From the IMG/VR virus record IMGVR_UViG_2711768076_000014, positions 1-22,684 of that record: DNA of 22,684 bases; one strand, written 5' to 3'. The DNA comes from a virus. Lineage: Duplodnaviria; Heunggongvirae; Uroviricota; Caudoviricetes. Below, piece after piece: positions 982-21,421 of the stretch (position 1 is its first letter; each line of letters begins with the position of its first letter). Both the position numbers and the translations under genes were made by a program. The notes under the pieces were generated by a model that did no database searches, was not told where the DNA came from, and worked only from the letters and a program-made list of their open reading frames with translations.

Positions 982-988
982 GCGTTCA

Positions 989-1639: not shown

Positions 1640-1718
1640 AGAGAATGTCCTTATACGTTCTCAGAACAAGCAGCAAAAAAACAAATGAGATCAAAGTAAT
1701 ATATCTTCACTTGCAGGC

Positions 1719-1952
1719 TTGAACAGCAGAAAATTTGCGAGCATGATCGCAATTATTTCACTGCCAGGGATATCAATGGCTTCCAGTAAATCGCTACAGC
1801 AGGCAATTGCCAATATAAAAATCTGGCATAAGGGTGAACAGCGCGCACCGCATAAACCATTGTTATTGCTATACGTATTAGCGGGATACCTGAATGGACA
1901 TCCACGCCTTTTCGATTATTGTAGTGGAACAGTCTACGAGGATGCAGTTTGA
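1719..1952 (+). CDS. Hypothetical small protein (77 aa), possible gene remnant
   Basis: ORF only, in the 640-bp gap between the HNH gene start and abiEii stop; no clear SD; coding status uncertain. Confidence 0.15.
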   Translation: MNSRKFASMIAIISLPGISMASSKSLQQAIANIKIWHKGEQRAPHKPLLLLYVLAGYLNGHPRLFDYCSGTVYEDAV

Positions 1953-2017
1953 AGTGAGTAAGTAAAGGTTGCTGGAAACGATCAATGCCGCCATACAATG
2001 ATATTTGAGGATCAACA

Positions 2018-2203
2018 ATGAGTAATAAAAACTACGAAAGTCACCGCAAAGCGATTGTTAGTAAAGGTATACCACCCGCTCTATTAAATAGGCTCACCAA
2101 TTCGGATGTTCAGGTGATCAATACCTTCTTAACACGAGTGAGCAAACTGGAACTATCTCAACAAGAGAAAGACTGGATCATAAAAATCATCTCTATGGTT
2201 TAG
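2018..2203 (+). CDS. Hypothetical small protein (61 aa)
   Basis: ORF preceded by GAGGA about 6 nt before the ATG; no recognisable motif. Confidence 0.25.
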   Translation: MSNKNYESHRKAIVSKGIPPALLNRLTNSDVQVINTFLTRVSKLELSQQEKDWIIKIISMV

Positions 2204-2282
2204 AGAATTTCAGAATTTCAAGTAAAGACAATGCTGCATATCAAGCATTCAGGATGGCTAGCGCTAAGCTCCTAAACCTGGA

Positions 2283-3188
2283 TTAAGCCTCATCCCATGT
2301 GATCTTTCGCTCTCCATACACCATTGGCGAAACAAACTGCTGATAGCGCATCTCGTAGAGAGGATTGTTCGCCAACTCATCCAGTCCCATTTTTAGCTCA
2401 TCAACTGGAGACGCGCAAAACTGCGGGTACTGGTTGCCGTAACGCTGAATGTCCTGCTCAATAGTTTGTTGAACAAAATCAACGAGCAGACTCATATCAA
2501 CATGACTCGTCTCAACAATACAGTTTGTATCGTAGATATGACGTACCAGCGATGCATCATCAAATCGCTCAACATCTCGCACAACTGCCGCAGTACGACG
2601 TAACATCGCCACCAGCTTTTCTGCCTGTGTGCTAATGATAGTTGCGCATGGAAACGCTGAAACAATAGCCGCTTTTCCCGTGATCCCTGTTACCAGTGAA
2701 TGAATATCCCGTAATTCAGAAGGCTCCAGTAACTTCGCTTCCATCAATTCCAGCCGGATAAAAGGACGCAAACAAGGTGCCTGCACTACTCGCTGTGGAT
2801 AACGAACAGGTATGTCATTATAACGATATTCATCCCGCGTCACTTTTGGGTAATCATCATCAAAATTGAACACACCCGATGAAGCTATTGCACTGGAAAC
2901 TGCCTGAACAATTTCTTTACGGGTATTTTTTCGCTGAGTGCGGGAAAGTGCCTGAAATGCATCCTTAGGCACCAGTTTGATATCCACATCTTCCGACATG
3001 CGATTAAGTGCGACACCTGATTTTGCCAGAGCGGTTCCTCCGGCAAACACCAATTGATGAGTATCGAACACCAGAGGTTTAAGCAATTGCAAAAGCTCAA
3101 CGATATAGTGATCTTTTTCCACAATTGCGACAGACTCAATACCAAGCGCGTCAGCCACTTCAGAAAAAAGAGTGGTTAAATCATCCAT
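2283..3188 (-). CDS. AbiEii/AbiGii-family nucleotidyltransferase toxin (type IV TA / abortive infection), 301 aa
   Basis: N-terminal FAGGTALAKSG...RMSEDVDI fits the GS...D.D nucleotidyltransferase motif of the AbiEii/DUF1814 family; start overlaps the upstream wHTH gene stop by 8 bp. Confidence 0.7.
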   Translation of the reverse strand: MDDLTTLFSEVADALGIESVAIVEKDHYIVELLQLLKPLVFDTHQLVFAGGTALAKSGVALNRMSEDVDIKLVPKDAFQALSRTQRKNTRKEIVQAVSSAIASSGVFNFDDDYPKVTRDEYRYNDIPVRYPQRVVQAPCLRPFIRLELMEAKLLEPSELRDIHSLVTGITGKAAIVSAFPCATIISTQAEKLVAMLRRTAAVVRDVERFDDASLVRHIYDTNCIVETSHVDMSLLVDFVQQTIEQDIQRYGNQYPQFCASPVDELKMGLDELANNPLYEMRYQQFVSPMVYGERKITWDEA

Positions 3189-3576
3189 TTAATCTGCTGT
3201 TCCCTACAGATAATACGCGTTTAAAACGCCGGGGGGTTTTTATCTCGGGTGAAGCTGGGATCTGCGTAGAAGTACCGCTATTGTATGCCTGCGTTGCGCC
3301 AGCAAAACGATAGCGTACTTTCAGGCGTTCCAGCGTTTCGACAATCACCGCTGAAGAGCCTCCGGGAGCCGCTGGCATTACCTTGCCTGTAATACCGTTC
3401 CGCCGTGCTTTGGTATACACGCCATAACCAACCTTCAACAGTTGCCCTTCCCTGACAAGCTCGCGCAATACCCGACCAACCTGATCGTAGCCTGCAATAT
3501 CTTTAAAGTCGTCACGAGTGAATACGTAACGTTTAGAACGTTTCAGTCGTGACTGAATGCGTGCTTTTATCGTCAT
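3181..3576 (-). CDS. AbiEi-like antitoxin / winged-HTH transcriptional regulator (about 131 aa from the ATG with SD)
   Basis: MTIKARIQSRLKRSKRYVFTRDDF...VGRVLRELVREGQLLKVGYGVY resembles the AbiEi N-terminal wHTH; GGAGG sits 5 nt before the ATG ending at 3576; the six-frame ORF extends to 3645 but the upstream in-frame ATGs lack an SD. Confidence 0.6.
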   Translation of the reverse strand: MTIKARIQSRLKRSKRYVFTRDDFKDIAGYDQVGRVLRELVREGQLLKVGYGVYTKARRNGITGKVMPAAPGGSSAVIVETLERLKVRYRFAGATQAYNSGTSTQIPASPEIKTPRRFKRVLSVGNSRLNG

Positions 3577-3603
3577 ATTCGCCTCCAGAGTCATTGCATA
3601 AAG

Positions 3604-3646
3604 AGTAGCAAAAATACGACATTTTAGATAGCAAACATACGACATT
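3604..3646 (-). promoter_or_regulatory. Two tandem 20-bp direct repeats (period 23 bp) upstream of abiEi; putative operator/promoter
   Basis: Plus-strand agtagcaaaaatacgacatt (3604-3623) and gatagcaaacatacgacatt (3627-3646) match at 18 of 20 positions, immediately upstream of the SD-supported abiEi start. Confidence 0.4.
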
Positions 3647-4479
3647 CATTTTGCTGATAACGCTGACGGAAAGTGCTTCGCCACGATATCATTCATCTTA
3701 TCCACCAGATCCAGTCGCTTGAAAGTGATATGCCCACTGCCTTTCTGGTAATAGCGGATGACAAATAAATCGTCATCAAATACCTGTTCATGCGGGTGAG
3801 CACTAACGAAGTCCATAAACCGAATCGCAACATCATGCCGGTTATCGGGAATGGCCTTCCCATCCAGCAGATAGAACATACGCTCCAGATCGGCAAGCTG
3901 ATCTCGCCGCCAGCCCCAGTTCAGGCTGTAGCCCCATCTGTCATGCTTCACCAGATTGTTAACGATAATCTTCTTACCGAAATAACAGGGATTATTGGTT
4001 TTGTAGTCCCAGCTCAATCCCTTAAATACATTGATAACCCCACGTTCGAAAACGTCCTGCTTATTGTGGTGAAGTTGTTCAAAGGTACTCAGAATGTTGG
4101 CTTCGCTAATCGCCGGGAGATCGCCCTCTTCCAGGTTCTTTGCCCACTGACTGCGGGCTTCGGCATCCATCAGAGTCAACATCCCAGACTTCAGCATGAG
4201 ATCGCGCCAGATGCTGCGATCGATATTTCGGGTGATCACCGGCATCGCTTTGTCGGTTGGCTGCATCAGCCAGCAGTCAAAGGCATATCCATTTCGCATT
4301 GCCCAGGTTCCAGCCACATCACCGCCAATACTGGATGTCAGGCTGGAGATATCATCAAGTTTTTGGATTAACGCCGCTATCTGGTTCAGTGCACTATCAC
4401 GTCCTGTGACGATACGCTCGATACTGGTCGAGCAAATTAGTTCGTTATGATCGGTTAAGACTTCAGCTTCTGTCTGCAT
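3646..4479 (-). CDS. Hypothetical protein, 277 aa, no family assignable
   Basis: Long ORF filling the space between the hsdM divergent promoter region and the abiE operator; no catalytic motif recognised. Confidence 0.6.
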   Translation of the reverse strand: MQTEAEVLTDHNELICSTSIERIVTGRDSALNQIAALIQKLDDISSLTSSIGGDVAGTWAMRNGYAFDCWLMQPTDKAMPVITRNIDRSIWRDLMLKSGMLTLMDAEARSQWAKNLEEGDLPAISEANILSTFEQLHHNKQDVFERGVINVFKGLSWDYKTNNPCYFGKKIIVNNLVKHDRWGYSLNWGWRRDQLADLERMFYLLDGKAIPDNRHDVAIRFMDFVSAHPHEQVFDDDLFVIRYYQKGSGHITFKRLDLVDKMNDIVAKHFPSALSAK

Positions 4480-4784
4480 AATCTTTCATCCGTAAAAAAT
4501 ACACTCGCCGTTAGTAGCAGACGAATTATCCACTGGTGAAAGATTGGGTAAATAATGAGATTGAAAATCGGGAAGGTGACTCGCAATAAATTATCTGATC
4601 ACCTACGGATGGGCGATGGGCATATAAAGTAGCCTCCTGACTCAAGCGGTGAATGCTGAGTAAGATGCACTAACAATCTGGTACTGAATCCCCTCCTCAC
4701 CGTCATACAAATCTGAAAAACCAAACAACTTCCGGTAAAATCCCGGCAAAAGCCGACGTTAAAAACACATTCAAAGGATAAAAA

Positions 4785-6337
4785 ATGACCAGTCTTCAGC
4801 AGCGCGCGGAGCTTCATCGCCAAATCTGGCAAATTGCTAACGATGTCAGAGGTTCGGTCGATGGATGGGATTTTAAGCAATACGTTCTGGGCGCGCTTTT
4901 CTACCGTTTTATCAGCGAAAATTTTTCCAGCTATATTGAAGCCGGTGATGACAGTATCTGTTATGCGAAACTGGATGACAGCGTAATTACTGATGACATT
5001 AAAGACGATGCCATCAAAACTAAAGGCTACTTCATCTACCCCAGTCAGCTTTTCTGCAACGTAGCTGCGAAAGCAAATACTAATGACAGACTGAATGCAG
5101 ATTTAAACAGCATCTTCGTTGCTATCGAAAGTTCTGCTTACGGTTATCCTTCAGAAGCTGACATCAAAGGTTTGTTTGCTGATTTCGATACCACCAGTAA
5201 CCGCCTGGGTAACACCGTTAAAGATAAAAATGCCCGCCTGGCTGCGGTTCTGAAAGGGGTTGAAGGGTTAAAACTTGGTGACTTCAACGAACATCAGATT
5301 GACCTGTTCGGTGATGCCTATGAGTTCCTGATTTCTAACTATGCGGCAAATGCCGGTAAGTCAGGCGGTGAGTTCTTTACACCGCAGCACGTCTCCAAGC
5401 TGATTGCACAACTGGCTATGCACGGGCAGACCCACGTTAACAAAATCTACGACCCGGCAGCGGGTTCCGGCTCACTGTTGTTGCAGGCGAAAAAACAGTT
5501 TGATAACCATATCATCGAAGAAGGCTTTTTCGGTCAGGAAATCAACCATACGACCTATAACCTGGCGCGTATGAACATGTTTTTGCACAACATCAACTAC
5601 GACAAGTTTGATATCAAGCTTGGCAATACGCTGACTGAACCGCACTTCAGAGATGAAAAACCGTTTGATGCCATCGTTTCTAACCCGCCGTATTCGGTGA
5701 AATGGATTGGCAGCGATGACCCGACGCTGATTAACGATGAGCGTTTTGCCCCGGCTGGCGTTCTGGCCCCCAAATCCAAAGCTGACTTTGCGTTTGTATT
5801 ACATGCGCTGAACTATCTTTCGGCCAAAGGTCGTGCTGCGATTGTCTGCTTCCCGGGTATTTTTTACCGTGGCGGCGCAGAGCAGAAAATCCGTCAGTAT
5901 CTGGTCGATAATAACTATGTCGAAACCGTAATTTCACTGGCTCCGAACCTGTTCTTTGGCACCACCATTGCCGTAAACATTCTGGTTCTGTCCAAACATA
6001 AAACGGATACCAACGTTCAGTTTATTGATGCCAGCGAACTGTTCAAAAAAGAGACCAACAACAATATCCTGACCGATGCCCATATCGAACAAATTATGCA
6101 GGTATTCACCAGCAAGGAAGATGTTGCTCATCTGGCAAAATCTGTCGCGTTTGAAGCCGTTGTAGCGAATGACTATAACCTGTCGGTGAGCAGCTATGTA
6201 GAATCGAAAGATAACCGCGAAATTATCGATATTGCTGAGCTGAATGCAGAACTGAAAACTACGGTCAGCAAAATCGACCAGTTGCGTAAAGATATCGACT
6301 CAATTGTGGCAGAGATTGAAGGTGACGAGGTGCAGGG

Positions 6338-6341
<4 letters not shown>
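4785..6341 (+). CDS. hsdM: Type I restriction-modification N6-adenine DNA methyltransferase subunit HsdM, 518 aa
   Basis: SAM-binding [10 protein letters not shown] and catalytic NPPY ([12 protein letters not shown]); N-terminal HsdM-type domain; 4-bp ATGA overlap with hsdS. Confidence 0.9.
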
Positions 6342-7543
<1,202 letters not shown>

Positions 7544-7665
7544 TTGACCATTGCTACCGATCGGGCCACCTTAACACCCGGTCAGTATATAGACTATTTT
7601 TTTACGCGCCGGAAGTCACTCTTAACGCCCTTCCGGCTCTTGCCAGGCGGCACAAAGGATGCGCT

Positions 7666-10600
7666 ATGACTCATCAAACACACACCATTGCTGAATCCAA
7701 TAACTTTATCGTCCTTGATAAGTACATCAAAGCTGAGCAAACAAGCGACAGCTACCAGAGCGAATCGGACCTGGAACGTGAACTGATTCAGGACCTGCGG
7801 AATCAGGGTTATGAATTTATTTCGGTAAAATCACAGTCAGCGATGCAGGCCAACGTTCGGGAACAGCTTCAGAGCCTCAATGGTGTGGTGTTTAATGACA
7901 GCGAGTGGCGGCGTTTCACGGAGCAGTATCTGGATAACCCGAGCGATGGCATTCTGGATAAGACCCGTAAAATCCATATCGACTATATTTGCGACTTTAT
8001 TTTTGATGACGAGCGTCTTGAGAACATCTATTTGATAGATAAAAAGAATCTCATGCGCAATAAGGTGCAGATTATCCAGCAGTTTGAGCAGGCGGGTTCT
8101 CATGCTAACCGTTATGACGTCACGATCCTGGTTAATGGCTTACCACTGGTACAAATCGAACTGAAAAAGCGCGGCGTGGCGATTCGTGAGGCTTTCAACC
8201 AGATACATCGTTACAGTAAAGAGAGTTTTAACAGCGAAAATTCCCTGTTTAAGTATCTGCAACTGTTTGTCATTTCTAACGGCACCGATACCCGTTACTT
8301 TGCCAACACCACAAAGCGCGATAAAAACAGTTTTGACTTCACCATGAACTGGGCGAAATCAGACAACACGCTGATTAAAGACCTCAAAGATTTTACCGCT
8401 ACCTTTTTCCAGAAACATACTCTGCTTAATGTTCTGGTGAACTACAGCGTGTTCGATATTAGCCAGACGCTACTGGTGATGCGACCGTACCAGATTGCCG
8501 CTACCGAACGGATCTTATGGAAAATCAACAGTTCCTATAAAGCGAAAAACTGGTCTAACCCCGAAAGCGGTGGCTTTATCTGGCACACTACCGGTTCCGG
8601 TAAAACACTGACCAGCTTTAAAGCCGCGCGCCTGGCAACAGAACTGGACTTTATTGATAAAGTCTTCTTTGTGGTCGACAGGAAAGACCTCGATTACCAG
8701 ACGATGAAGGAATATCAGCGTTTTTCCCCAGACAGCGTCAACGGCTCGGAAAATACCGCAGGCCTTAAACGAAATCTGGATAAGGACGATAACAAAATTA
8801 TCGTCACCACTATTCAGAAACTTAATAACCTGATGAAAGCAGAAAGCGACCTGCCTGTATACAATCAGCAAGTGGTGTTTATATTTGATGAATGTCACCG
8901 CAGCCAGTTTGGAGAAGCGCAGAAAAATCTGAAGAAGAAATTCAAACGCTATTATCAGTTTGGTTTTACCGGCACACCTATTTTCCCGGAAAACGCTTTA
9001 GGCTCAGAAACGACCGCCAGCGTATTTGGTCGTGAATTGCATTCATATGTGATTACCGATGCGATTCGTGATGAAAAAGTGCTCAAATTCAAGGTGGACT
9101 ATAACGATGTGCGGCCCCAGTTTAAATCTTTAGAGACAGAAACCGACGAGAAAAAACTGAGTGCGGCTGAAAATCAGCAGGCGTTTCTTCATCCCATGCG
9201 TATACAGGAAATTACGCAATATATTCTGAATAACTTCCGCCAGAAGACCCACCGTACTTTCCCAGGTTCCAAAGGCTTTAATGCCATGCTGGCAGTGAGT
9301 AGCGTGGATGCCGCGAAAGCCTATTACGCGACGTTTAAACGGTTACAAGAGGAAGCAGCTAATAAATCGGCTACCTATAAACCGCTGCGTGTTGCGACAA
9401 TCTTCTCCTTTGCCGCCAATGAAGAACAAAATGCCATTGGTGAAATTTCCGATGAAACTTTTGATACCAGCGCAATGGACAGCAGTGCTAAAGAGTTTCT
9501 TGACGCTGCAATTCGTGAGTATAACAGCTATTTTAAAACTAACTTCAGCACCGACAGTAACGGTTTTCAGAACTACTATCGTGATTTAGCCCAACGGGTT
9601 AAAAATCAGGATATCGATCTGTTAATTGTCGTTGGGATGTTTTTAACCGGCTTCGACGCTCCAACATTGAACACGCTATTCGTCGATAAAAACTTGCGTT
9701 TTCACGGCCTGATGCAGGCATTCTCCCGCACCAACCGCATTTATAACGCCACTAAAACCTTCGGTAACATCGTCACTTTCCGGGATCTGGAACGCTCAAC
9801 CATTGATGCCATAACGCTGTTTGGTGATAAAAATACCAAAAATGTAGTGTTAGAAAAGAGTTATGCAGAGTATATGGAAGGCTTTACTGATGCTGCCACT
9901 GGTGAAGCTAAACGCGGCTTTATGGCAGTAGTTTCAGAACTGGAACAACGGTTCCCTGACCCTGCCAGTATTGAAAGTGAAAAAGAGAAGAAAGACTTCG
10001 TTAAACTGTTTGGTGAATACCTGCGTGCCGAGAACATCCTGCAAAACTATGATGAATTTGCCACGCTGAAAGCCCTGCAACAAATCGATCTTAGCGATCC
10101 TGTTGCGGTAGAAAAATTCAAAGAAGAACATTATGTGGATGATGAAAAGTTCGCTGAATTACAAACGATTCGTCTCCCTGCTGAACGCAAGATTCAGGAT
10201 TATCGTTCTGCCTATAACGATATTCGTGACTGGCAGCGCCGCGAGAAAGAGGCTGGCAAAAAAGAAAAGTTAACTACTGACTGGGATGACGTGGTTTTTG
10301 AAATCGATTTGCTGAAGTCTCAGGAAATAAACCTGGATTATATCCTTGGACTGATTTTCGAACACAACAGACAAAACAAAGGTAAGGGCGAAATGACCGA
10401 AGAGGTCAAGCGCTTAATTCGTTCGAGCCTTGGGAACCGTGCCAAAGAAGGTCTGGTGGTCGATTTTATTCAACAAACAAACCTGGATGATTTGCCGGAT
10501 AAAGCCAGCATCATTGACGCGTTTTTTACCTTTGCTCAACGCGAACAGCAACGTGAAGCAGAAGCATTGATCAAAGAAGAAAATCTCAATGAAGAGGCGG

Positions 10601-10782
10601 CGAAACGCTATATTCGCACGTCTTTAAAACGCGAATACGCCACCGAAAATGGCACGGAATTAAACGAGACATTGCCAAAACTCAGTCCGTTAAATCCGCA
10701 ATATAAGACGAAAAAACAGACGGTTTTCCAGAAGATCGTCGCGTTTATTGAGAAGTTTAAAGGTGTAGGCGGGCAGATATAA
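7666..10782 (+). CDS. hsdR: Type I R-M restriction subunit HsdR (helicase-nuclease), 1038 aa, EcoR124-like
   Basis: Endonuclease-type D...ELK block ([20 protein letters not shown]), Walker A TGSGKT, DECH box ([10 protein letters not shown]); length and N-terminus [20 protein letters not shown] match my recollection of EcoR124I HsdR; separated from hsdS by 122 bp, suggesting its own promoter. Confidence 0.9.
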
Positions 10783-10964
10783 TGTATTAATCCGAACCTG
10801 ATCTGGCAGATAGCTGTCAGATCAGGACTGAGCTAATACAAATTAATATCGAACCGAAAATACCAACGCCTGTACCAACATTTTTCGTTTGCGATGGGTT
10901 GGAATTGGTTAGCCCTGAGAGAGTTAAAATAGCGAGAAAGATAGGTAACTAACGGATTTCAGAC

Positions 10965-10992
10965 ACAAAAAAAGCCGCTCTTGAGCGGCTCG
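10965..10992 (-). terminator. Rho-independent terminator downstream of the retron RT gene
   Basis: Stem agccgctc / gagcggct with ttga loop, followed on the minus strand by a run of 7 or more U; sits between convergent hsdR and RT genes. Confidence 0.55.
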
Positions 10993-11006
10993 ATTTGCAT
11001 ACGATG

Positions 11007-11022
11007 TGGTGCGAAGGCCGGA
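11007..11022. other. Degenerate att-like copy of the leuX tRNA 3' end (putative distal attachment site of the P4-like element)
   Basis: tggtgcgaaggccgga matches the reverse complement of the leuX 3' end (TGGTGCCGAAGGCCGGA, recalled from memory) with one 1-nt deletion; P4 is known to integrate at leuX. Confidence 0.3.
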
Positions 11023-11262
11023 ATAGAATAACTATATAACTCATTGAACATGATGATAAAAATTTTATAGCTTATGACTTGTGCCCCATTTTGTGCCCCC
11101 AACAAAATCTTATTGTTGCTAACTAGCACAATAAATGAATTAGCAAGATAGAGTTGCCTAGTTAGGTTCCGTCTTACAGAGCCTAACCAGAACAACCAAA
11201 CCTCTGAACCAACCTTGCGCAAGCTAGATAAAGTCATGCTGATTTATTAGGACAACAAGCTA

Positions 11263-12210
11263 TTAAATTTCATATTTTGAAATTTCGCTGATTACATCAT
11301 CCCCATATTTCTTAATCATGGAGGCAAAGAATTTATGTTCAATAAATTTCGCATAGCCTAATTCTCCTTTAAGGGTTAGAATTTCTTTCTCAGATAAAAC
11401 CCCACACACATAATAATGTATTTTACTTCTTAAAAGACGCTTTCTATCACGACCTAAAGACAAATAACCATCAGTCGTAATAGTTACACCAGTTACATGT
11501 CTATTAAACTTCCTTGAGGTAAAAACTGTTTTCTCATGGTTTATTTTAATATTCCTAAGATTTACTACGTTAAGAACTTCCCTTACTAACTTAGGAACAT
11601 CAAATAAAGCTCCTTTGACTTTGGTGCTAAACGTAAGATCATCAGCATACCTTGAGTAGGTAATACCCAAATCCTTGCATCTTTTCGATATTTCCTCATC
11701 GAAGAAATACATTACTGTATTTGAAATAATGGGAGAAGAAGGTGCTCCAACACTTAGGCGTAACGGGCTATTTCTTCTTAACTTCCAGAAGAAAAGATTT
11801 TTAAGAACAAAGATATCAGTATCAGTTAGTTCAACGCCATAATCTTTTAAGACAGATAAAAGATTATGGGGTTTGATACTCATAAAAAAGTTTTTAAAAT
11901 CCATTTTAAGCAAATAATCATTATTACAATGCATTAACGCATTAGATCTAATACTTTTATCGGCTTCATAAGCGAAAGCATTTTCATGAACTTTCAAATT
12001 AGCCAACATATGATTGATTACTACCTTCTGTAAGGCTTTAACTTGCCTAGCTGGTTGTGCAATTAATCTATATCCATTACCATTTCTTTTGGCGATAGGA
12101 TAAATTTTATATCTGCGTGGAATAGTAACAATATACCTTTTAGCCTCTTCTTCGCTAAGAAAAAGACCTTTTGAAATATAACTTAGCAACTCCATTCTAA
12201 GCCCCTCCAC
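11263..12210 (-). CDS. Retron-type reverse transcriptase, 315 aa
   Basis: RT blocks YRLIAQPARQVKALQKVV, LKMDFKNFFMSI, SVGAPSSPIISN, YSRYADDLTFS (YADD catalytic box) and VTGVTIT (retron VTG signature); size as for Ec73/Ec86-class retron RTs. Confidence 0.85.
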   Translation of the reverse strand: MEGLRMELLSYISKGLFLSEEEAKRYIVTIPRRYKIYPIAKRNGNGYRLIAQPARQVKALQKVVINHMLANLKVHENAFAYEADKSIRSNALMHCNNDYLLKMDFKNFFMSIKPHNLLSVLKDYGVELTDTDIFVLKNLFFWKLRRNSPLRLSVGAPSSPIISNTVMYFFDEEISKRCKDLGITYSRYADDLTFSTKVKGALFDVPKLVREVLNVVNLRNIKINHEKTVFTSRKFNRHVTGVTITTDGYLSLGRDRKRLLRSKIHYYVCGVLSEKEILTLKGELGYAKFIEHKFFASMIKKYGDDVISEISKYEI

Positions 12211-13183
12211 GCACGATATTGATTTGATTTAGAGCATTTTTCCTTTTTTTTGCAGTCTCGTCCATATCTTTAGCATCCATACTTAAGTAAGATTGTCGGA
12301 TTGCAACCTTAATATTCATAGAATCCTTTATTTTACCACTAGCACTGATACCAAATTTAAGTTTACTCTCTCTATGCCCTCGGGAATAGAAGTAGTCTGT
12401 ACCACTGTAAGATAATGATGAGGTTAATTTCATCTTTTCAAGCAAATAAAGTAAACGAGTTATTATTTTTTGTGGCACATCTATATCCATACAGTATAGT
12501 GCCCACTCTATTTCGCTTTTCTTGATTGGTTCTGATAAAAGGATTATTTCGTAAATCAATATAGCTAGGTGCCCAGTATTTTCAGGGTTATATCGCTCCG
12601 TTTTTTTTACACGTTTTAATCTAGAATGAATATCATGGTAGATAAGCTCAACCTCATCATATTTCATACGATCCGATTTTGGCCATGGATAAACTGATAC
12701 TGAGGCCTCATCTATTTTTTTAAGATACTCCAAAGGGCCTAAATATATAAAAGAAGATCTAGCAGGAATATTTTTTCGTTCATTTCCCTCAATCTCCTCA
12801 AATGGTGCGACTACATGCAATTTTTGAGCTAGAGACTTCCTATTAACAAATAATCCAAGCTCAACTAACGAACCTGCACTTTCTAAACAGATAACAACTA
12901 ATGTTGAAATATTTGCAATATCATCTTCAAAGCTCATTAGATCTGAATATGCCCCCTCTCTGAAGTAGTCATGGAAGTTCTCAGCTAAAATAAGAGAATC
13001 TGACAATTCAGGTTTGTGGCCTGCTACATAAGTAAATATGTGGTCTCGTACACTCATTGGAGTGGAATTTATCGGCCCACCACAAACAAAAATAATAGGA
13101 GGCATGAACTGAACAGTGAAATTTGAATATTTCAAATCTCCAAACTGCTCTTGTAATGCATTCATATATGCAGAATCACTCAC
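12197..13183 (-). CDS. Retron accessory/effector protein (type II-like, possibly nucleoside deoxyribosyltransferase-like plus DNA-binding), 328 aa
   Basis: Lies between the msd hairpin and the RT gene and overlaps the RT start by 14 bp; AT-rich like the RT gene; family assigned by context only. Start is GTG at 13183 or ATG at 13165. Confidence 0.6.
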   Translation of the reverse strand: MSDSAYMNALQEQFGDLKYSNFTVQFMPPIIFVCGGPINSTPMSVRDHIFTYVAGHKPELSDSLILAENFHDYFREGAYSDLMSFEDDIANISTLVVICLESAGSLVELGLFVNRKSLAQKLHVVAPFEEIEGNERKNIPARSSFIYLGPLEYLKKIDEASVSVYPWPKSDRMKYDEVELIYHDIHSRLKRVKKTERYNPENTGHLAILIYEIILLSEPIKKSEIEWALYCMDIDVPQKIITRLLYLLEKMKLTSSLSYSGTDYFYSRGHRESKLKFGISASGKIKDSMNIKVAIRQSYLSMDAKDMDETAKKRKNALNQINIVRGGA

Positions 13184-13204
13184 CCTTGTGACCCCCTACT
13201 CCAA

Positions 13205-13480
13205 AAGAAAAGGTGGCTAACCAGCCACCTTCGACCCCTTTACCTAAAGGATGCGCTTTAGACTTTCAGCAAGATCCTGAATGGAACGCAGTGGCATGAA
13301 GGATCTTGCTGAAAGTGCTAAAGCGCAACCCTAAATGTCCACAATAAATTAGTGTCTGGCGAAACGCCCGACAAGGATAAACCTGTTATCCCGCGCGTAA
13401 AGGTAGGGTTAGGATAGCAAAAGATGCGAGATTTTCAATAAGTAAGCGTACTGGCTGCCAGCAACCACCTAAACCATTGA
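13205..13480 (-). ncRNA. Retron msr-msd non-coding RNA (approximate bounds)
   Basis: Upstream of the effector gene: short stem-loops (ggataa/ttatcc 13374-13390; ggcg/cgcc about 13354-13364; aacccta/tagggtt) typical of msr, plus a 27-bp near-perfect hairpin at 13254..13325 typical of msd; a1/a2 repeats not found with confidence. Confidence 0.5.
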
Positions 13481-13810
13481 CATTTAAACAAAAATAAATC
13501 TAACAATTGAAAGCAATACCTTATTGAATACAGCATTCTTATATCTCTCTTGATATCGCAACATCACAATTATCACCGTTAGTGCGGGCAGCCCCGCACG
13601 CCTGCCCGCTTCGCTTAACAGACTGGTTTTCATGCACCTCATTAATCGTCTCAGAAGCCAGCACACAAGGGTTTTCTCGTCAAAAATGGTGCATAAGACT
13701 CATGCGTTTTCATGCGCCATAGACATGCACTCATGCGCTCTCATGTCAGCCAGGAAAAGGGGGTAAAAAATCCCGGTACTGGACCGGGATTACGTGGGCG
13801 TTCTTTCTAA

Positions 13811-14083
13811 TCAGACAGGAATCTGCTGACGGCTTGACAGTTTTGACGCGGAGCCATAGCGATTGAGCGTTTTCTGTTGTTTTTCCGGGGATTGTGCTTT
13901 GTCTGATAGCTGTTCATTGCGCCGGGGTTTCATGATTATCTTATCCACACTCTCCAGTGCCGTAAATGTGCAGGAACATTCCAGATTCTGGCACTGATAC
14001 CACGAGCGTTTAACTGACGGAGCTTCATAGGCTGCTGTTCTGGCGTGTGCAACTGTACCGCATTCCGGACATTTAAGTGCCAT
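13811..14083 (-). CDS. Ogr/Delta-family zinc-finger late-gene transcriptional activator, about 90 aa
   Basis: MALKCPECG...YQCQNLECSCTF matches the Cys4 Ogr/Delta pattern; AGGAG sits 8 nt before the ATG at 14083 (the six-frame ORF extends to a GTG at 14092). Confidence 0.8.
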   Translation of the reverse strand: MALKCPECGTVAHARTAAYEAPSVKRSWYQCQNLECSCTFTALESVDKIIMKPRRNEQLSDKAQSPEKQQKTLNRYGSASKLSSRQQIPV

Positions 14084-14088
14084 TAATA

Positions 14089-14640
14089 TCACTCCTGTAT
14101 ATCGTTAATGTCATTCAGGCGTTGCTGAAAACGCAGATGTTGTGCCGGGGTGTAAGAACCCTGGCAATCACGAATCATCCCGGGGTCAGGCATCAAACCG
14201 GATTCATCCAGGATCTCACGATAATCCCCGGCAATTTCAGGCGGTGTTATTGCCAGCTGGCGAACCAGAGCACTGCGTAATATACGGGACGCAACGTCAA
14301 CCCCTCCGCGCCCCTTCAGGAACGGAGCCAGTGCAGATGTCAGGGCTGCCCCATTCGCCTGCATAAAATTGCTGAGAGCGGCTTCTGTGCAGGCCTCCAT
14401 CAGTAAATGCTGCGAGTAAATGCATTCGCGCGCAGCACAGTTAATTTGCCATTTCAGCACATCCAGACGTTCCCGCAGTAATTCGAGCTGTCGGGCATAA
14501 TCTGCTGGTTTTTCTGTGGCAGCGAGGAGAGATGTTATCTGTTGTTCAACGGCTTTTCGGCTCTCATTATGTCCGGCCCACAGAATACGGGCATTCCGAA
14601 AACTGGTAAGTGCCTGGTCAGGCGTGCCTCGGGCCGTCAT
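14089..14640 (-). CDS. psu: Psu-like polarity-suppression / capsid-decoration protein, 183 aa
   Basis: Blocks LKWQINCAAR, FMQANGAALTSALAPFL and YTPAQHL resemble my recollection of P4 Psu (190 aa); ATGA overlap with the upstream gene. Confidence 0.55.
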   Translation of the reverse strand: MTARGTPDQALTSFRNARILWAGHNESRKAVEQQITSLLAATEKPADYARQLELLRERLDVLKWQINCAARECIYSQHLLMEACTEAALSNFMQANGAALTSALAPFLKGRGGVDVASRILRSALVRQLAITPPEIAGDYREILDESGLMPDPGMIRDCQGSYTPAQHLRFQQRLNDINDIQE

Positions 14641-15380
14641 ACTGCTTTCTCCTTCTCAGCAAGTTCCTGACGAACCTTAATTTTATGCATAGCTGCCGGA
14701 GAGAGTTGATTACTGAAATCCAGACGCGCCGCATAATCCGGGGCAACTCCCGCCAGTTTAAACACCGGGTCCTGCTCAGGCATCGCATCGTTAGCCAGAG
14801 CCGGTCTGGTGATATGTTTATGAATAAAGTCTTTCAGCACTGTGTCCGGGTCATTAACTGAATTCACCACACCCACAACGGCACTGGCTTCCCGGCCCAT
14901 TGTGGATTTAAGCAGGCTCAGCGTCTGAATAAGCGCTTTTCCATGCGACTGCATAAAATCCTCCCAGATTTGTTTTGCGCGAATATCCACAAGAATGTTA
15001 TGCGCGTGGATATACTTTCCGGCTAATTCTGCAGCTTTCTGCGGCAAAAGTGCATTTTCGCTTTCCTGAGCCGCCAGCAGCTCATCAAAATCCTCAAGCG
15101 TTTCTCGTCCCAGCGCAATTTCCGTGCGCAGTTTTTTCATTTCCTTTGAGACCACGCCCTGACTTTCACGAAACAGCGTGCGCCACTCCTCATTCAGTGT
15201 GTTCGTCGTGGCTTCCATTTCAGCGCGACGCTGGCGGATTGTCGCAATATTATCCGCTGCCGCTTTCTGCTGACGACGTGCTTCAAGCCATGCGTTTCTG
15301 GCTGTGTTCATGGTTTCCAGTGCCCGCTGCGTTACAGCCGGAAAAGTGGAAAGGTTGTTATTCACTGCGGTGTTGTTCAT
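14637..15380 (-). CDS. Sid-like external scaffold (capsid size determination) protein, 247 aa, tentative
   Basis: Size close to P4 Sid (244 aa), Ala/Glu/Arg-rich helical character, first gene of the operon with Psu and Ogr/Delta, preceded by AGGAG and TGT-N12-ACA dyads; no direct motif match recalled. Confidence 0.4.
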   Translation of the reverse strand: MNNTAVNNNLSTFPAVTQRALETMNTARNAWLEARRQQKAAADNIATIRQRRAEMEATTNTLNEEWRTLFRESQGVVSKEMKKLRTEIALGRETLEDFDELLAAQESENALLPQKAAELAGKYIHAHNILVDIRAKQIWEDFMQSHGKALIQTLSLLKSTMGREASAVVGVVNSVNDPDTVLKDFIHKHITRPALANDAMPEQDPVFKLAGVAPDYAARLDFSNQLSPAAMHKIKVRQELAEKEKAV

Positions 15381-15415
15381 GACTTCTCCTGTCGGGTTGG
15401 TTCGTTACGTCAATT

Positions 15416-15471
15416 GTGTCGTGGCTGACACAAGCACACTATCGGTGCTCAGTGTGTGGTGGCTGGCACAA
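15416..15471 (-). promoter_or_regulatory. Two TGT-N12-ACA dyads (putative Ogr/Delta-dependent late promoter of the sid-psu-delta operon)
   Basis: tgtGTCGTGGCTGACaca at 15416-15433 and tgtGTGGTGGCTGGCaca at 15454-15471, 36 to 82 bp upstream of the sid-like ATG; P2/P4 late promoters carry this element. Confidence 0.5.
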
Positions 15472-15558
15472 CGGACGCTTGCGGTTATTCAGACGTGGCT
15501 ATGAAAGCCAGCCAGATAAAAATGCCCTCTGTTTCAGTCTGCTTTATGTCCCTGATGC

Positions 15559-15747
15559 GGTGGAACAGGTGAAACATGTGTTACAGCTTTGTTTTATAAG
15601 GCATTTATATACACTGCACCGGTGGAACATCGCGGGTAACAAGGTGGAACAGCGGATTGGCTGGCGTTACATCTGTTCCACCTCACTATTTCAGAAGGTG
15701 GAACAGGTTCAGCCCTGTAAAATACGGTTGTTCCACCTGTTTCACCT
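15559..15747. repeat. Iteron array: at least 6 copies of GGTGGAACAG / CTGTTCCACC in both orientations (putative ori or crr)
   Basis: Copies at 15559, 15621 (variant), 15643, 15673 (inverted), 15697, 15728 (inverted), plus tgtttcacc at 15739; immediately downstream of the primase gene; resembles the P4 alpha-binding octamer TGTTCACC (from memory). Confidence 0.5.
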
Positions 15748-15780
15748 GTTACCCTTAATAAATAAGACTCACGCAAAGCC

Positions 15781-18453
15781 TTAACCCGGCACCTCGCTGT
15801 TGAAGACATAGAGCCTGCGGGGATTCATCTCTGGCGGGCGAATGGTTGTCTGGAGTTTGCCATCAGTGGAGGGCAGCAGGTATCCACGATCTGCGCACAG
15901 ACGCGCCACCTTGCGCGGGTCAAATCCCCTGCAGATTTCTTTCCAGCCGGACGGCATGACATAGAACGTAGTGACAGCTTCCGTGCCCTGCGCGGTACTG
16001 CCTTTCTCCACCCTGCGCCAGCCCACCATATTGCCGGGGCGGTTGCGCTCGTCATACCAGTCTGCAAAGCGGCTGTACTGATTCGCGGTAAAGAAACTGC
16101 GAACCTGCTCCAGTGCGGCGATATCTTCCTGATTGGCGGTGTGCCCGCGATCTTTCAGCCATGCGTTCAGGCAGACGCGGGTTGCCCGCAGTGCTTCACC
16201 CTCAGGCCAGCCGGTGATACCCAGACGGGTTGCCAGTTCACCTGCCATCGCCACCAGAGCAAAGCGGTTCACAGCCCGGCCCACCTGATTGCCTGCATCT
16301 TTCGGAGTCAGGGCGGCAGCATATTCCTTCATCAGCGATTTTGCCTGTGCCGTTAGTCCGTTAAGATCAGCGGTCAGTGCTTTCAGCCACTCCCGGAACG
16401 GCGAACCGTAGTAGCAGGACGTGGCCCATTCAAGATGCTCTGCCAGAGCCTTGCCGCTGTCGAAGCCGTGCAGCTCCTCAAAAACGCCAAACTTCCCGGA
16501 ATCGCTGGGGATCTGGATCATCCTGACTTCCATCCCGGCAAAAGTACGCTCACCGGCCTTTGCCGCATGTTCGGTCAGAGACAACTCGCCAGTTGAAAAG
16601 AACAACAGGCGCCAATGCTTACGGGTACGCAGCTCACCGTCCGTACCGGCACGGCCCTTGCCCTGACCGTTTGCCAGCATGTAGGCGATATTGCCTGCCT
16701 CGCGTCCGTCAACTTCCCGGATCTCATCAAGCATCATGGCGGCATCGTTGCGGCGGCTGGCGCATCCCTCCAGCGCGTTGCCGGTGGCCCGCCATGTCTG
16801 CCAGTAGTCAGGCCCGCCGCAGACGGAGGTTGCCGCTTTCATGGTGGTGGTCTTACCGTCTGTCGATTCCCCTTTGAGGTGGTAGCCGCCGCCGTCCATA
16901 CCAACCAGCCGTAACAGTGGTGCAGCAAAGGCCAGGCTGACAGCAAATGCCACGCGGGAGTTGCCGGTACAGTAGCGGGATACATGCTCCCGCCATTCCT
17001 CTGTTGTGCCCGACACGCGGAAATCACGCCCCTGCACGGAAGTGGTCTGGAGAATGACACCCTCTGCACCTTCACCGCTGACCTCATCCTGCAGGACGTA
17101 AACCTGACCATGCCAGCCAGTACGACTGACGCAGGTCACGCGGCGTTCCGGTTTACACAGTGAGATATATTCCATCAGGCGTGCGCGTGCCTCACCGGTG
17201 GTGCTGATATAAGACAGCCCGTTAACCAGCAATACCCGGCGCAGTTCCTCACCACTGCCGCTCAGCATTTCCATCGGCATCGCCCAGCGGCGACACTCAC
17301 CCCACGTATCTTCCCATTCCAGCAGTCGTCCGAAGTTACCGCCATCGGCATCGCAGGTGATTGCCGTCACGCGCAGCGGGCTGCATATTTTGACGTTCTG
17401 GATCTCCGTCTCACCGTTGCGCTGTACCTGCTTTTCATACCAGAGATATTCCTGGGTAAGACGGAACCCGTGCGGCAGTTGCGTGCGGCCCTCCCCGCAC
17501 AGCACCAGACCGTTACGAAAGGCTTCACGGGCGCGGGTAATACCGTGCTCCCGATGGAAGTCATTCCAGTCGGCCTTAATCTCTCCCGGTGGCAGCGTCA
17601 TCCAGCCGCCAACAGCTTTTGCCGCCCGTTCAGCAAAGGCTCTGCCGGGATTCTCACCCCCGTCCTGAAAATCGTTATCACCGGCGATGATAATTTTTAC
17701 CTCAGGCCAGCGTGCCCGCAGCGACTGCGCCACATTGGGCAGGTTGCCCGCAGATATGGCAGCCACTACGCATCCGGCAGTGAGCTGACTTACCGTCAGC
17801 GCCGTAGCGTAACCTTCGGTAATCACCACCTGTACCGGTGGTTCAGACGGTAACGGGCTGAGCGACACAAACGCGCCTTTCATCGTGCTGCCGGGCAGTA
17901 TGCTTTTTTCACCCGTCGGGGCGATAAGCTGTGCACCAGTCACGGCTCCGGTGTTGGTCGTGAGTGGTAACAGCAGGGAACCGGCAGGAAAATCCTTACC
18001 GCTGATATGCTGCACGCTTCCGGTCAGAGAGGCCGGGTATCCGGCGAACCCTTTTCCTGTCAGATAGGCGCTTTCTCCCGTGTGGCTCTCTTTCATCAGC
18101 GCCGCCACGGTAAGACCCATGTCGCGTTTAGGGGCTTTTTTTCTGGCAGGCTTAACAGGCAGTTCCTGCACATCCGGCACATTAAGCACCTGCGCCACCT
18201 CCTGCGCAGCCTTTCTGACGCTGTAACCGGTTACGAGCTTAACCAGATCCAGACCGTCACCATTGCCACACTGGCTGCAGATCCACGTCCCGCGCCCGTC
18301 AAGGTCATCAAGGCGAAAACGATCCTTGCCCCCACATTTCGGGCAGGGACCGTGCCTGCCGTTTTCAGGTACATCAATACGCAGCATCTGGAGAATAACG
18401 GGCCATTTCCCCCGTGCGGCGGCTGAAATCTGCGTAACCGTCTGTATTGTCAT
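15781..18453 (-). CDS. Phage/plasmid primase-helicase (P4 alpha-like), 890 aa
   Basis: N-terminal zinc-binding CPKCGGKDRF...CSQCGNGDG, Toprim-like IIAGDNDFQDGGENPG, P-loop GESTDGKTT; largest ORF of the element. Confidence 0.85.
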   Translation of the reverse strand: MTIQTVTQISAAARGKWPVILQMLRIDVPENGRHGPCPKCGGKDRFRLDDLDGRGTWICSQCGNGDGLDLVKLVTGYSVRKAAQEVAQVLNVPDVQELPVKPARKKAPKRDMGLTVAALMKESHTGESAYLTGKGFAGYPASLTGSVQHISGKDFPAGSLLLPLTTNTGAVTGAQLIAPTGEKSILPGSTMKGAFVSLSPLPSEPPVQVVITEGYATALTVSQLTAGCVVAAISAGNLPNVAQSLRARWPEVKIIIAGDNDFQDGGENPGRAFAERAAKAVGGWMTLPPGEIKADWNDFHREHGITRAREAFRNGLVLCGEGRTQLPHGFRLTQEYLWYEKQVQRNGETEIQNVKICSPLRVTAITCDADGGNFGRLLEWEDTWGECRRWAMPMEMLSGSGEELRRVLLVNGLSYISTTGEARARLMEYISLCKPERRVTCVSRTGWHGQVYVLQDEVSGEGAEGVILQTTSVQGRDFRVSGTTEEWREHVSRYCTGNSRVAFAVSLAFAAPLLRLVGMDGGGYHLKGESTDGKTTTMKAATSVCGGPDYWQTWRATGNALEGCASRRNDAAMMLDEIREVDGREAGNIAYMLANGQGKGRAGTDGELRTRKHWRLLFFSTGELSLTEHAAKAGERTFAGMEVRMIQIPSDSGKFGVFEELHGFDSGKALAEHLEWATSCYYGSPFREWLKALTADLNGLTAQAKSLMKEYAAALTPKDAGNQVGRAVNRFALVAMAGELATRLGITGWPEGEALRATRVCLNAWLKDRGHTANQEDIAALEQVRSFFTANQYSRFADWYDERNRPGNMVGWRRVEKGSTAQGTEAVTTFYVMPSGWKEICRGFDPRKVARLCADRGYLLPSTDGKLQTTIRPPEMNPRRLYVFNSEVPG

Positions 18454-18833
18454 ACTTCCCCCTGATACAACGTCACACCGGTACTGCAGAAGTCATCAAA
18501 GGCCGCCGGAAGCGTGCGGTACATCTCCGCCATCACTTCACAGCCGCGCGCGGTCAGTACCGGCGGCGCGGTCAGCAGTGACGGCTCCAGCATGTCAGTC
18601 AGCAGTGCCAGCGCGGCAGCGGCGCCCTGTGCTTCGCCGTACTCGTTAATCAGTACGCACTCGATATGCAGCGCAATGGCCATTTCAATACGCTCCACCG
18701 TCAGGCTGTGCGGACCATACTGATCACTGCCAGTTTCGTTCAGCATTTTCTGCCGCCATGCTGAAGCAATAGCCCGCCGGTAAAGCGCGGTGGTCATTTC
18801 TGCCGGGAAAATGGAAACCTGCGGCTGGTTCAT
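18450..18833 (-). CDS. Hypothetical P4-like small protein, 127 aa
   Basis: AGGAGG 6 nt upstream of ATG; stop overlaps the primase start (ATGA); start overlaps the upstream ORF stop. Confidence 0.5.
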   Translation of the reverse strand: MNQPQVSIFPAEMTTALYRRAIASAWRQKMLNETGSDQYGPHSLTVERIEMAIALHIECVLINEYGEAQGAAAALALLTDMLEPSLLTAPPVLTARGCEVMAEMYRTLPAAFDDFCSTGVTLYQGEV

Positions 18834-19114
18834 CTGGCACCTCCTTCAATCAGTGCGCAGCTGTGTGCAATATCCGTCAAATCTGCCAGCAGGTACTCCA
18901 TCAGCGCGGCGACACCATGCGCACAGCCAGCGTCCAGTGCTCCGGCCTGAGACGGGTATTCAGAAAAGAGAAGCTGGAGCATGTCGCAGGCATTTCTTGC
19001 GCGGGTCAGTTTTCCGAAACTGTCCTCTGACAACCCATAGGCAAAAGCACCGGTATTGTGTTTTTCAGGCAAAGTGTGGCCCTGAGCACCGTTGTGCCCG
19101 TTTGAAATATTCAT
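18830..19114 (-). CDS. Hypothetical P4-like small protein, 94 aa
   Basis: GGAG 6 nt upstream of ATG; translationally coupled to the downstream gene. Confidence 0.45.
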   Translation of the reverse strand: MNISNGHNGAQGHTLPEKHNTGAFAYGLSEDSFGKLTRARNACDMLQLLFSEYPSQAGALDAGCAHGVAALMEYLLADLTDIAHSCALIEGGAR

Positions 19115-19145
19115 CGTGGATTACTCCGTTTTCAGCGGTATTTTG

Positions 19146-19505
19146 TCAGAGAAACTTTGAATAGTGACCGTCGTCAGGCTCAGCAGAACGCCGTATGCTA
19201 CGCTCCCGCCAGCGGATAAATAGCACAGACGGATGCAGTGTCAGCGGGCCGGAACCACTACCGCCAGCAGGAGCTGGTGCAGGCTTCAAGAGCGGTACAT
19301 CAAACAGGCGCGTATACCGCTGTTCAAACCATGCCAGAGGGCAGGAAGAAAGCTGGTTGTCGCTGTCATGACGTATCAGCACTTCACAGCTGAATTCAGG
19401 ATTAACCAGCGCCACAGAGGGCGAGGCTTCTATTAATCGGATAATCGTGACCGTCCAGCCACGTTCATGCTGCCAGCGTTCGCCGGGGTGCGGATAATTA
19501 CGCAT
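19146..19505 (-). CDS. Hypothetical P4-like small protein, about 119 aa
   Basis: GGAGG 5 nt upstream of the ATG at 19505 (MRNYPHPGERWQ...); the six-frame ORF extends further to 19535. Confidence 0.45.
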   Translation of the reverse strand: MRNYPHPGERWQHERGWTVTIIRLIEASPSVALVNPEFSCEVLIRHDSDNQLSSCPLAWFEQRYTRLFDVPLLKPAPAPAGGSGSGPLTLHPSVLFIRWRERSIRRSAEPDDGHYSKFL

Positions 19506-19674
19506 GTTCACCTCCGCAGGGAATGCGCCCGGCAAAGCTCAGTACATAGTCCGGGGCAAGTCTGCGCCGCGCTGACCGCTCGTTATCTGCGGTGATCCTT
19601 AACATCACAGGACGGGCATTGCGTTGACTGCGGTTGATCGCCGCAAATAACCAGGTACACTTCTGTTTAGCCAT
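19498..19674 (-). CDS. Hypothetical small basic protein, about 58 aa
   Basis: GAGGT 7 nt upstream of the ATG at 19674 (MAKQKCTWLF...); stop overlaps the next gene start; C-terminal part of a longer six-frame ORF that I otherwise reject. Confidence 0.35.
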   Translation of the reverse strand: MAKQKCTWLFAAINRSQRNARPVMLRITADNERSARRRLAPDYVLSFAGRIPCGGEHA

Positions 19675-19750
19675 CTTCGTTACCTCATTTAGCGGATTGG
19701 TCAGAAGCCCGGTTAGTGTTGCTGCACTGTCGGGCTTCGCACTCACAAGG

Positions 19751-19840
19751 TGAATCGCACCTTTAATTTTAAAGCTACCCTTAAGTGAATCGCACTTCAA
19801 GCTTTTTATTATCATTTTTTTTGCATATACTGAATCGCAC
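19751..19840. promoter_or_regulatory. Three direct copies of TGAATCGCAC in the divergent control region
   Basis: Exact 10-mers at 19751-19760, 19786-19795 and 19831-19840, between the leftward small-gene cluster and the rightward 61-aa gene; the last copy overlaps a TATACT -10-like hexamer (19826-19831). Confidence 0.4.
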
Positions 19841-19861
19841 CTAACGCGAGGAGATCCAGTA

Positions 19862-20047
19862 ATGGCAACGAGTTCAACTAACAACAAGTCGCAGCAACTT
19901 AATGCTCGTTTCCCACATGATGTAGTTGCAGAATTAGAAAGCAACCTTGAAGATGGAGAAACGAAAGCGCAATTCATTGTTACGGCTGTAAAAGGCGAGA
20001 TTAAACGCCGACAGCGCAGGAAAAATAAGCCAGAGCAAGGAAGTTGA
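19862..20047 (+). CDS. Small putative DNA-binding regulator, 61 aa, basic C-terminus
   Basis: AGGAG 8 nt before ATG; the only plus-strand gene in the P4-like module, divergent from the small-gene cluster; basic tail KRRQRRKNK. Confidence 0.45.
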   Translation: MATSSTNNKSQQLNARFPHDVVAELESNLEDGETKAQFIVTAVKGEIKRRQRRKNKPEQGS

Positions 20048-20143
20048 ATAGAGAAGCCAACAGACGTTCTCTCTGTTTCCATGTTAATTTCAGTAAGCGA
20101 CAATATTTTTAAGCCCACAAATTCATTATGTCGGGCTTTTTTA

Positions 20144-21392: not shown

Positions 21393-21421
21393 TTAAATCT
21401 CTCCGCAGCCCCCAATGGTAA

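Follow-up and report, generated by a model that had tools for sequence, protein, structure and literature searches.

Positions 11007–11022 of the window (the whole stretch of DNA analyzed here, 22,684 nt) are very probably the core of attR, the distal attachment site of a P4-like satellite prophage 11.8 kb long, which carries a retron St85 cargo and is integrated in the 3′ end of the tRNA gene leuX; the block of restriction–modification (R-M), AbiE, and HNH genes to the left would have abutted leuX beforehand. This arrangement is of an ordinary, already known kind, that is, a P4-like satellite attR at leuX beside an older defense block. Coordinates of all features are collected in Table 1.

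The site reads TGGTGCGAAGGCCGGA. The window holds no tRNA gene, its own leuX being placed beyond the window end, and the leuX reference was taken from Escherichia coli loci that share window sequence (L002, 26668–26752; L004; and K-12, L006). In these comparator genomes leuX is an 85-nt gene, the 3′ end of which, on the + strand of the window, reads TGGTGCCGAAGGCCGGACTCGAACC. Taken in reverse complement, the final 17 nt of leuX yield the 16-mer once one C of a CC pair is dropped (16 of 17 positions, one gap), and the 16-nt match with one deletion described in an earlier note on this DNA is thus borne out against the real gene. Window and leuX diverge after GGA, where the former continues with ATAG and the latter with CTCG. 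The orientation is that of a direct repeat, as expected if leuX is situated to the right and encoded on the − strand. An edit-distance search of the window gave 11007–11022 as the sole match with three or fewer edits in this orientation; the other three-edit match to the leuX end lies on the − strand at 4152–4169 (two substitutions and one insertion), and the window contains no second leuX remnant. An exact leuX 25-mer with up to three mismatches matched nowhere in the window, the mismatch-only search being blank because the difference is an indel.

Comparison with satellite-free genomes shows what this site separates. A chimeric query, composed of the hsdR 3′ end, the spacer, intact leuX, and ahr, recovered 203 complete E. 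coli genomes in which these parts are continuous and the satellite is absent. The predicted empty site is thus present, and the satellite boundary coincides with a presence/absence polymorphism. A 51-nt flank query was rejected as an empty-site test; it gave K-12-type loci, which have another integrase beside leuX and are not true empty sites. In L004 (strain ESBL 15), the empty junction reads ...gcatacgatgTGGTGCCGAAGGCCGGACTCGAACC. Window positions 1–11006 differ from L004, and equally from L001 (strain AMSHJX01), by 0 substitutions and 0 indels, and the missing C is the sole change at the junction besides the insertion. L001 has the identical nanS–HNH–AbiE–hsdMSR block and the same shortened core, followed on the right by a different P4-like satellite with a Dsr2 cargo, then an integrase and leuX. 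L002 (2017.15.01CC) carries the retron-bearing satellite of the window with the same core, plus an IS1, and its left neighbors are a membrane-protein gene and a gene for a phosphorothioate-DNA-binding restriction endonuclease.

Identity to the comparators switches at 11022/11023. With a 2-kb query across the site, left-half matches end near 11101–11104 and right-half matches start at 10954–10956; both window halves together were found in 0 of the 5,426 complete E. coli genomes searched. Because 1–11006 is identical to L004 and L001, the window is best described as an L004-type chromosome with an L002-type satellite. The flank is identical to that of satellite-free strains, and the insertion is therefore very recent. 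Taken with the P4-type arm described below, the 203 empty sites and the switch in identity uphold the proposed role of the 16-mer as distal att of the P4-like element.

Table 1. Features of the window and the basis on which each was assigned
Feature	Position	Strand	Basis
nanS, conserved chromosomal neighbor on the far side	1–981	+	98.3% identical to K-12 nanS
Older block without integrase	982–10782	.	Identical to L004 and L001; RefSeq annotation transferred
HNH endonuclease	989–1639	−	L004/L001 annotation
AbiEii	2283–3188	−	L004/L001 annotation
DUF6088-family ORF	3181–3645 (L004 RefSeq CDS maps to 3181–3576)	−	
DUF4942	3646–4479	−	L004/L001 annotation
Type I R-M hsdM	4785–6341	+	L004/L001 annotation
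Type I R-M hsdS	6338–7543	+	L004/L001 annotation
Type I R-M hsdR	7666–10782	+	L004/L001 annotation; EcoR124-family label
Spacer, 75% identical to K-12 and W2-5 intB–leuX spacer	10847–11006	.	Sequence comparison
Intrinsic terminator (stem 10991–10972, then T run)	10962–10991	−	Identical directly downstream of intact leuX in L004
attR core (last 17 nt of leuX minus one G/C pair)	11007–11022	− (tRNA sense)	leuX comparison; unique in window; 0/300 randomizations
P4-like satellite prophage	11007–22684, and ~165 nt beyond window end to leuX	.	99.6–99.9% identical to L002 14052–26667 apart from IS1 in L002
Satellite contents: retron, delta/psu/sid homologues, primase, integrase	Primase 15781–18453		RefSeq annotation of L002
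Satellite-side arm of att (P′ arm)	11023–11105	.	Motif pair and P4 comparison
Arm-type integrase repeat TGTGCCCC	11080–11087	.	P′ arm
Arm-type integrase repeat TGTGCCCCC	11092–11100	.	P′ arm
Retron St85-family cargo beside att	11263–13183	−	RefSeq annotation of near-identical L002; GC 33.6%
Retron reverse transcriptase	11263–12195 (mechanical ORF to 12210)	−	L002 RefSeq annotation
Retron effector	12197–13183	−	L002 RefSeq annotation
P4-family tyrosine integrase, 420 aa	21422–22684	−	Window ends at start codon; ~72% identical to P4 Int (tblastn)

The satellite combines P4 core genes with a P4-like size. The window contains neither attL nor leuX, and the direct repeat is deduced from L002, where leuX starts 165 nt past the integrase start of an element 99.6–99.9% identical to that of the window. 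With leuX placed in this way, the satellite would measure 11,842 bp from core to core, compared with 11,624 bp for P4; the size of about 11.7 kb given earlier thus stands as to P4-like length and is slightly revised in its value. An Icd-like gene is also present in the annotation of the L002 satellite. To the right of the core, TGCCCC motifs start at 11082 and 11094, that is, 60 and 72 nt after the core GGA (11022), which is the spacing found in the P4 attP (L005, 4154 and 4166 relative to 4094), so that the arm repeats are spaced from the core as in P4. In IMG/VR, this pair of motifs was also seen after 41 sites of the deletion type.

The retron-carrying satellite is present in about 205 complete E. 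coli genomes. Its retron St85-family module (11263–13800) has a GC content of 33.6%, compared with 46.9% for the whole satellite, and no Rfam family, the retron msr families included, reached the gathering score anywhere in the window. An IMG/VR contig (L067, UViG_2617271340_000008; site at 14–29) encodes an integrase protein 100% identical to that of the window, and its arm right of the core reads ctcgaacattt... where the window has atagaataac...; it appears from this pair that att arms are exchanged independently of the integrase.

Compared with P4 itself (X05947, NC_001609), which has a 20-bp core in the 3′ end of the gene for tRNA-Leu(CAA), annotated as TGGTGCCGAAGGCCGGACTC, the window site has the same target gene and core sequence and the same xTGCCCCC arm-repeat pair at identical distance from the core, and the element lies in the P4 packaging range in size. 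The two differ in that the identity between window and leuX ends after 17 nt instead of 20 and that the window core is one base shorter. They also differ in gene order: the window att lies beside the retron cargo, whereas that of P4 lies between int and the primase gene, and in the window the sid/psu/delta homologues (13811–15380) come after the primase and share its strand. P4-like satellites with anti-phage cargo are routinely delimited by attL and attR (NAR 2026, PMC13586616), and the element studied here, with its core P4 genes, retron St85 defense cargo, and att-defined ends, shows no essential difference from them.

The terminator next to the site had been ascribed to the retron in the earlier note, and this assignment has to be reversed. 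The hairpin at 10972–10991 is present and identical in satellite-free genomes, including L004, directly after intact leuX, and the intB–leuX spacer of K-12 and L003 has a homologous hairpin whose stem is compensated. The hairpin of the window is thus the old leuX trailer terminator of the pre-existing flank, outside the satellite. It may now also halt read-through from the retron operon.

These observations are consistent with the following course of events. The pre-insertion chromosome would have had the R-M/AbiE/HNH block abutting leuX via a 224-bp spacer that holds the leuX trailer terminator. Site-specific recombination by the tyrosine integrase would insert the satellite into the leuX 3′ end and thereby place it between this spacer and leuX. 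The resulting attR would link the spacer and terminator with a duplicate of the leuX end and with the satellite arm that bears the integrase arm-binding repeats, and an intact leuX would be kept beside the integrase gene, just past the window end. Strand exchange would fall in the last six bases of the tRNA gene (GCACCA; TGGTGC on the window strand), and we infer that the exact position lies within this hexamer. To the right of the exchange point, attR would be satellite DNA, and the regenerated tRNA gene would be bacterial except for the few bases at its end. The exchange region proposed here, of six bases and with a left half-site that is not conserved, would be unusual, which speaks against this reading. 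Williams (2002), writing on sublocations within tRNA genes, reportedly distinguished a 3′-end class.

The left block is a unit separate from the satellite and older, as had been claimed. It abuts leuX when the satellite is absent (L004 and 202 other genomes), stands next to another satellite in L001, and gives way to different genes in L002, L003, and K-12. The P4-like satellite and the R-M/AbiE block are two independent units. The block also proved to have no integrase of its own: tblastn with both integrases against window positions 1–11300 gave a best E-value of 0.1. Likewise, no distal leuX repeat for the block was found in the window (no second match within three to four edits). Its limits, earlier set at 982–11006, need correction. 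Relative to L002, the exchangeable cassette is about 1920–10955, with no repeats at its ends, and 982–1919 (~940 bp) belongs to a backbone also found in L002 and, in part, in K-12.

Several smaller observations concern the nanS side of this interval. The match with K-12 breaks off at 984, three bases beyond the nanS stop, and starts again at 1611; the gap at 985–1610 indicates that the HNH endonuclease gene (~626 bp) was cleanly inserted or deleted immediately behind nanS. In L002, 1095–1665 is missing. At ~1776–1925, the window has a 150-nt fragment of the phosphorothioate-DNA-binding restriction endonuclease gene that is complete in L002 (11795–12667), and the AbiE/DUF4942/R-M cassette (1920–10955) replaces the rest of that gene and the membrane-protein gene of L002.

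How the left block came to lie at leuX is a separate question. Tandem accretion at the tRNA gene, as suggested in the earlier note, finds a trace in what looks like a relic of an integrase-to-leuX spacer, and lacks the integrase and the distal repeat that would complete the picture. The homology of 10847–11006 to the intB–leuX spacer reaches within about 25 nt of the integrase start codon and includes a TACCAAC-type motif, and the segment is probably the integrase-proximal arm of an older island. Of 69 genomes with an 85-nt, enterobacterial-type leuX, 45 have spacer families of this kind separating leuX from an integrase gene; L002 shares only 10956–11006 of the spacer. Partial evidence thus supports descent of the left block from an integrase-bearing leuX island that would have lost its integrase.

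It is also possible, though less likely than not, that the block never integrated via leuX and is instead a cassette in a hypervariable nanS–leuX interval, swapped by homologous recombination, with the spacer being the native downstream region of leuX. Such an origin would fit a block without integrase remnant or distal repeat, the flanks that window and L002 share around different cargo (1–1919 in part, and 10956–11006), the left-flank scraps that K-12 keeps next to nanS, and the gccgc...gcgac-type terminators that follow leuX without an adjacent integrase in several genera. It is harder to reconcile with the alignment of 10847–11006 to the intB–leuX spacer of K-12 and W2-5 near the integrase start codon, since DNA between an island integrase and the tRNA gene is island DNA by construction. 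Related terminator flanks adjoin integrases in L157, L166, L111, and L199, and the GC content of the block (43.7–45.8%) is below that of nanS, both of which also argue for an island. Exchange by homologous recombination is in any case compatible with an island origin, and the two are not exclusive.

Two known systems provide a frame for the island origin. The K-12 cryptic element at leuX (PR-Y/KpLE2, intB) has the 75% identical spacer and an equivalent terminator hairpin; unlike K-12, the window lacks intB, and hsdR with its own hairpin abuts the spacer. A distal leuX repeat is not recognizable in K-12 either. In the Islander approach, which builds on tandem islands at tRNA genes, the ends of an island are marked by a regenerated tRNA gene and a displaced fragment, with older islands lying farther from the tRNA gene (PMC4383910); compared with such tandem islands, the left block keeps just the tRNA-proximal mark. 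In four IMG/VR contigs (L020, L086, L081, and L083), a P4-type integrase-side arm adjoins a leuX 3′ end of only 31, 43, or 66 nt, beyond which the DNA is unrelated, and these displaced leuX fragments indicate further islands inserted elsewhere within leuX.

The base missing from the core is not peculiar to the window. The one-base-shorter core is common to the window, L001, and L002 despite their differing flanks or satellites, and 41 IMG/VR contigs, which represent ~17 left-flank families, contain the exact 16-mer with a P4-type arm after it. In ~18 of these contigs, the left flank is the spacer of another integrase gene, which starts ~150–325 nt left of the site (mostly ~190–200 nt); the neighboring integrases share 44–76% identity with the two query integrases, and one truncated copy shares 88%. 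These ~18 contigs are tandem arrays in which the P4-like element entered a then-functional leuX. Sites recovered via the integrase-side arm, and hence not selected on the deletion, have the short form in 9 of 9 cases. The same holds for the middle att (flanked by a P4 integrase-side arm to its left and a P4 arm to its right) of P4–P4 tandem arrays in four metagenome contigs, which is short in 4 of 4. The CTCAAA arm follows a short core 29 times and a full-length (CC) core once, in the prophage L077; with this one natural CC-type distal site, the short core is common but not universal. In two further metagenome contigs (L234 and L259), a short-type core joins a P4 integrase-side arm to an arm with TACCAAC-type repeats, which resemble those in intB-type spacers, and the shorter core thus extends beyond elements whose arm repeats are TGCCCCC. 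The wording of the earlier note, a remnant with one deletion, implied decay and is not retained, the one-base-shorter core being the normal form in P4-like elements.

The short core is probably part of the satellite's own attP rather than a mutation of this copy. In this element-borne model, attP would read ...GTGTTAA-TGGTGC-GAAGGCCGGA-ATAGAA, with the short core, and attB would be intact. The middle sites and the sites beside older integrases are short, which excludes a full-length element core combined with exchange to the right of the CC pair. On the same model, attR is probably functional for excision.

Free circles of such elements were sought in several collections. No free attP of the retron type was found with a chimeric query in E. 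coli genomes, phages, or IMG/VR; no free P4-type attP was found in complete E. coli genomes, and the phage collection gave only P4 itself. Small P4-like plasmids with a free attP were not found, and a free attP circle of a natural P4-like element was absent from the phage, plasmid, IMG/VR, and complete-genome collections, which counts against the element-borne model. Candidate free P4-like genomes from metagenomes, with a P4 left arm, short core, and P4 right arm, proved to be tandem arrays on longer contigs; one of these metagenome contigs (L288) is colinear with the circular P4 map.

Alternatively, the deletion could be chromosomal. The displaced host leuX end would then be defective, exchange would take place to the right of the missing base, and the satellite would supply the only functional 3′ end, so that its loss would leave a broken tRNA in an addiction-like manner; attP would be full length, and an 84-nt leuX should exist. 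The full CC core of the P4 reference attP (X05947/NC_001609) fits this prediction, and so does strain 15A (E. coli O111:H21), in which an unoccupied leuX carries exactly this deletion. We nevertheless regard a chromosomal deletion as unlikely, because the identical deletion would be needed independently in ~17 flank families, and the functional leuX beside older integrases would have had to be defective before each P4 insertion. Moreover, the middle sites of P4–P4 arrays would be full length, the window flank is identical to the type with intact leuX seen in 203 genomes, and the unoccupied sites, 203 in all, include one known to be short. The 15A gene (L207, 12034–12117) is 84 nt long and lies beside the same R-M flank; the strain also has an 8-bp deletion in hsdM. 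It requires that exchange took place at least once on the right side of the missing base, and may be an excision scar that leaves a defective tRNA-Leu(CAA), or an assembly error. As general evidence for a right-hand crossover, this scar was set aside as a single exception.

Even less probable is that the 16-mer is a decayed, non-functional att fossil, in which a private deletion prevents the satellite from leaving or is the mark of a junction that died long ago. The indel that sets the core apart from leuX and the failure to find the excised form of this satellite in any collection would suit a fossil. Against this, dozens of P4-like elements whose flanks are unrelated carry the shortened core at their distal end, tandem arrays contain it as well, and the same deletion is seen in pheV islands; in the window itself, the arm repeats are intact and correctly spaced, and the flank, which does not differ from that of satellite-free strains, implies that the insertion is very recent. 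A chance resemblance to a tRNA end, for which only the short match of 16 nt speaks, is refuted by the absence of any match with one or fewer edits in 300 first-order Markov randomizations of the window and by the exact coincidence of the 16-mer boundary with a presence/absence polymorphism in hundreds of genomes.

The element-borne short core has a parallel at another tRNA gene. In pheV islands with a P4 integrase, the attR carries the same one-G deletion just 5′ of CACCA (PLoS Genet 2024, PMC11537424, Table 1), that is, the distal repeat is the tRNA 3′ end minus one G, as in the window. In tRNA sense, the pheV islands have TTCGATTCCGAGTCCGG-CACCA and the P4-type arm GAGTCCGGCCTTCG-CACCA, and the window match starts one base into the latter string, at TCCGG. 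The systems differ in the tRNA gene used and in scale, the pheV elements being large pathogenicity islands and the window element an 11.8-kb satellite. The deletion is tabulated in that study without an explanation.

An attempt to map the crossover from leuX acceptor-stem variants across genera gave no such map, the 3′ strand CTTCGGC being nearly invariant with or without an island. In Enterobacterales whose leuX has the 5′ acceptor strand GCCGGAG (L087 to L206, one genome per species), the 3′ strand is almost always CTTCGGC, which gives a G5.U68 wobble; the compensated 3′ strand CTCCGGC was seen only in L157 and L202. The wobble could stem from repeated replacement of the 3′ end by island copies or from simple conservation.

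For the window, the left boundary of the satellite is now fixed to the base, the ownership of the terminator is corrected, and two mobile or defense units that evolve independently are told apart. Delimiting att sites in this manner is routine for P4-like satellites and already known; only the combination of this satellite with this left R-M block is unrepresented in the 5,426 complete genomes searched. The single point of wider interest is the distal core, which natural P4-like elements and pheV islands with a P4 integrase have as a rule in a form shorter by one base. If the element encodes the short core, att-finding pipelines that need exact repeats would clip such sites, and the exchange point of a large integrase family would map to the CCA end of the tRNA gene. 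In the broadest form of this idea, which we consider evenly balanced, the missing base would be a conserved, element-encoded attP feature of P4-family integrases at leuX and pheV, exchange would be confined to GCACCA, the tRNA body would never be replaced, and the textbook 20-bp P4 core would be an atypical laboratory variant. Were this true, the one-base offset of the exchange region relative to the right-hand core site might add to the asymmetry between integration and excision.
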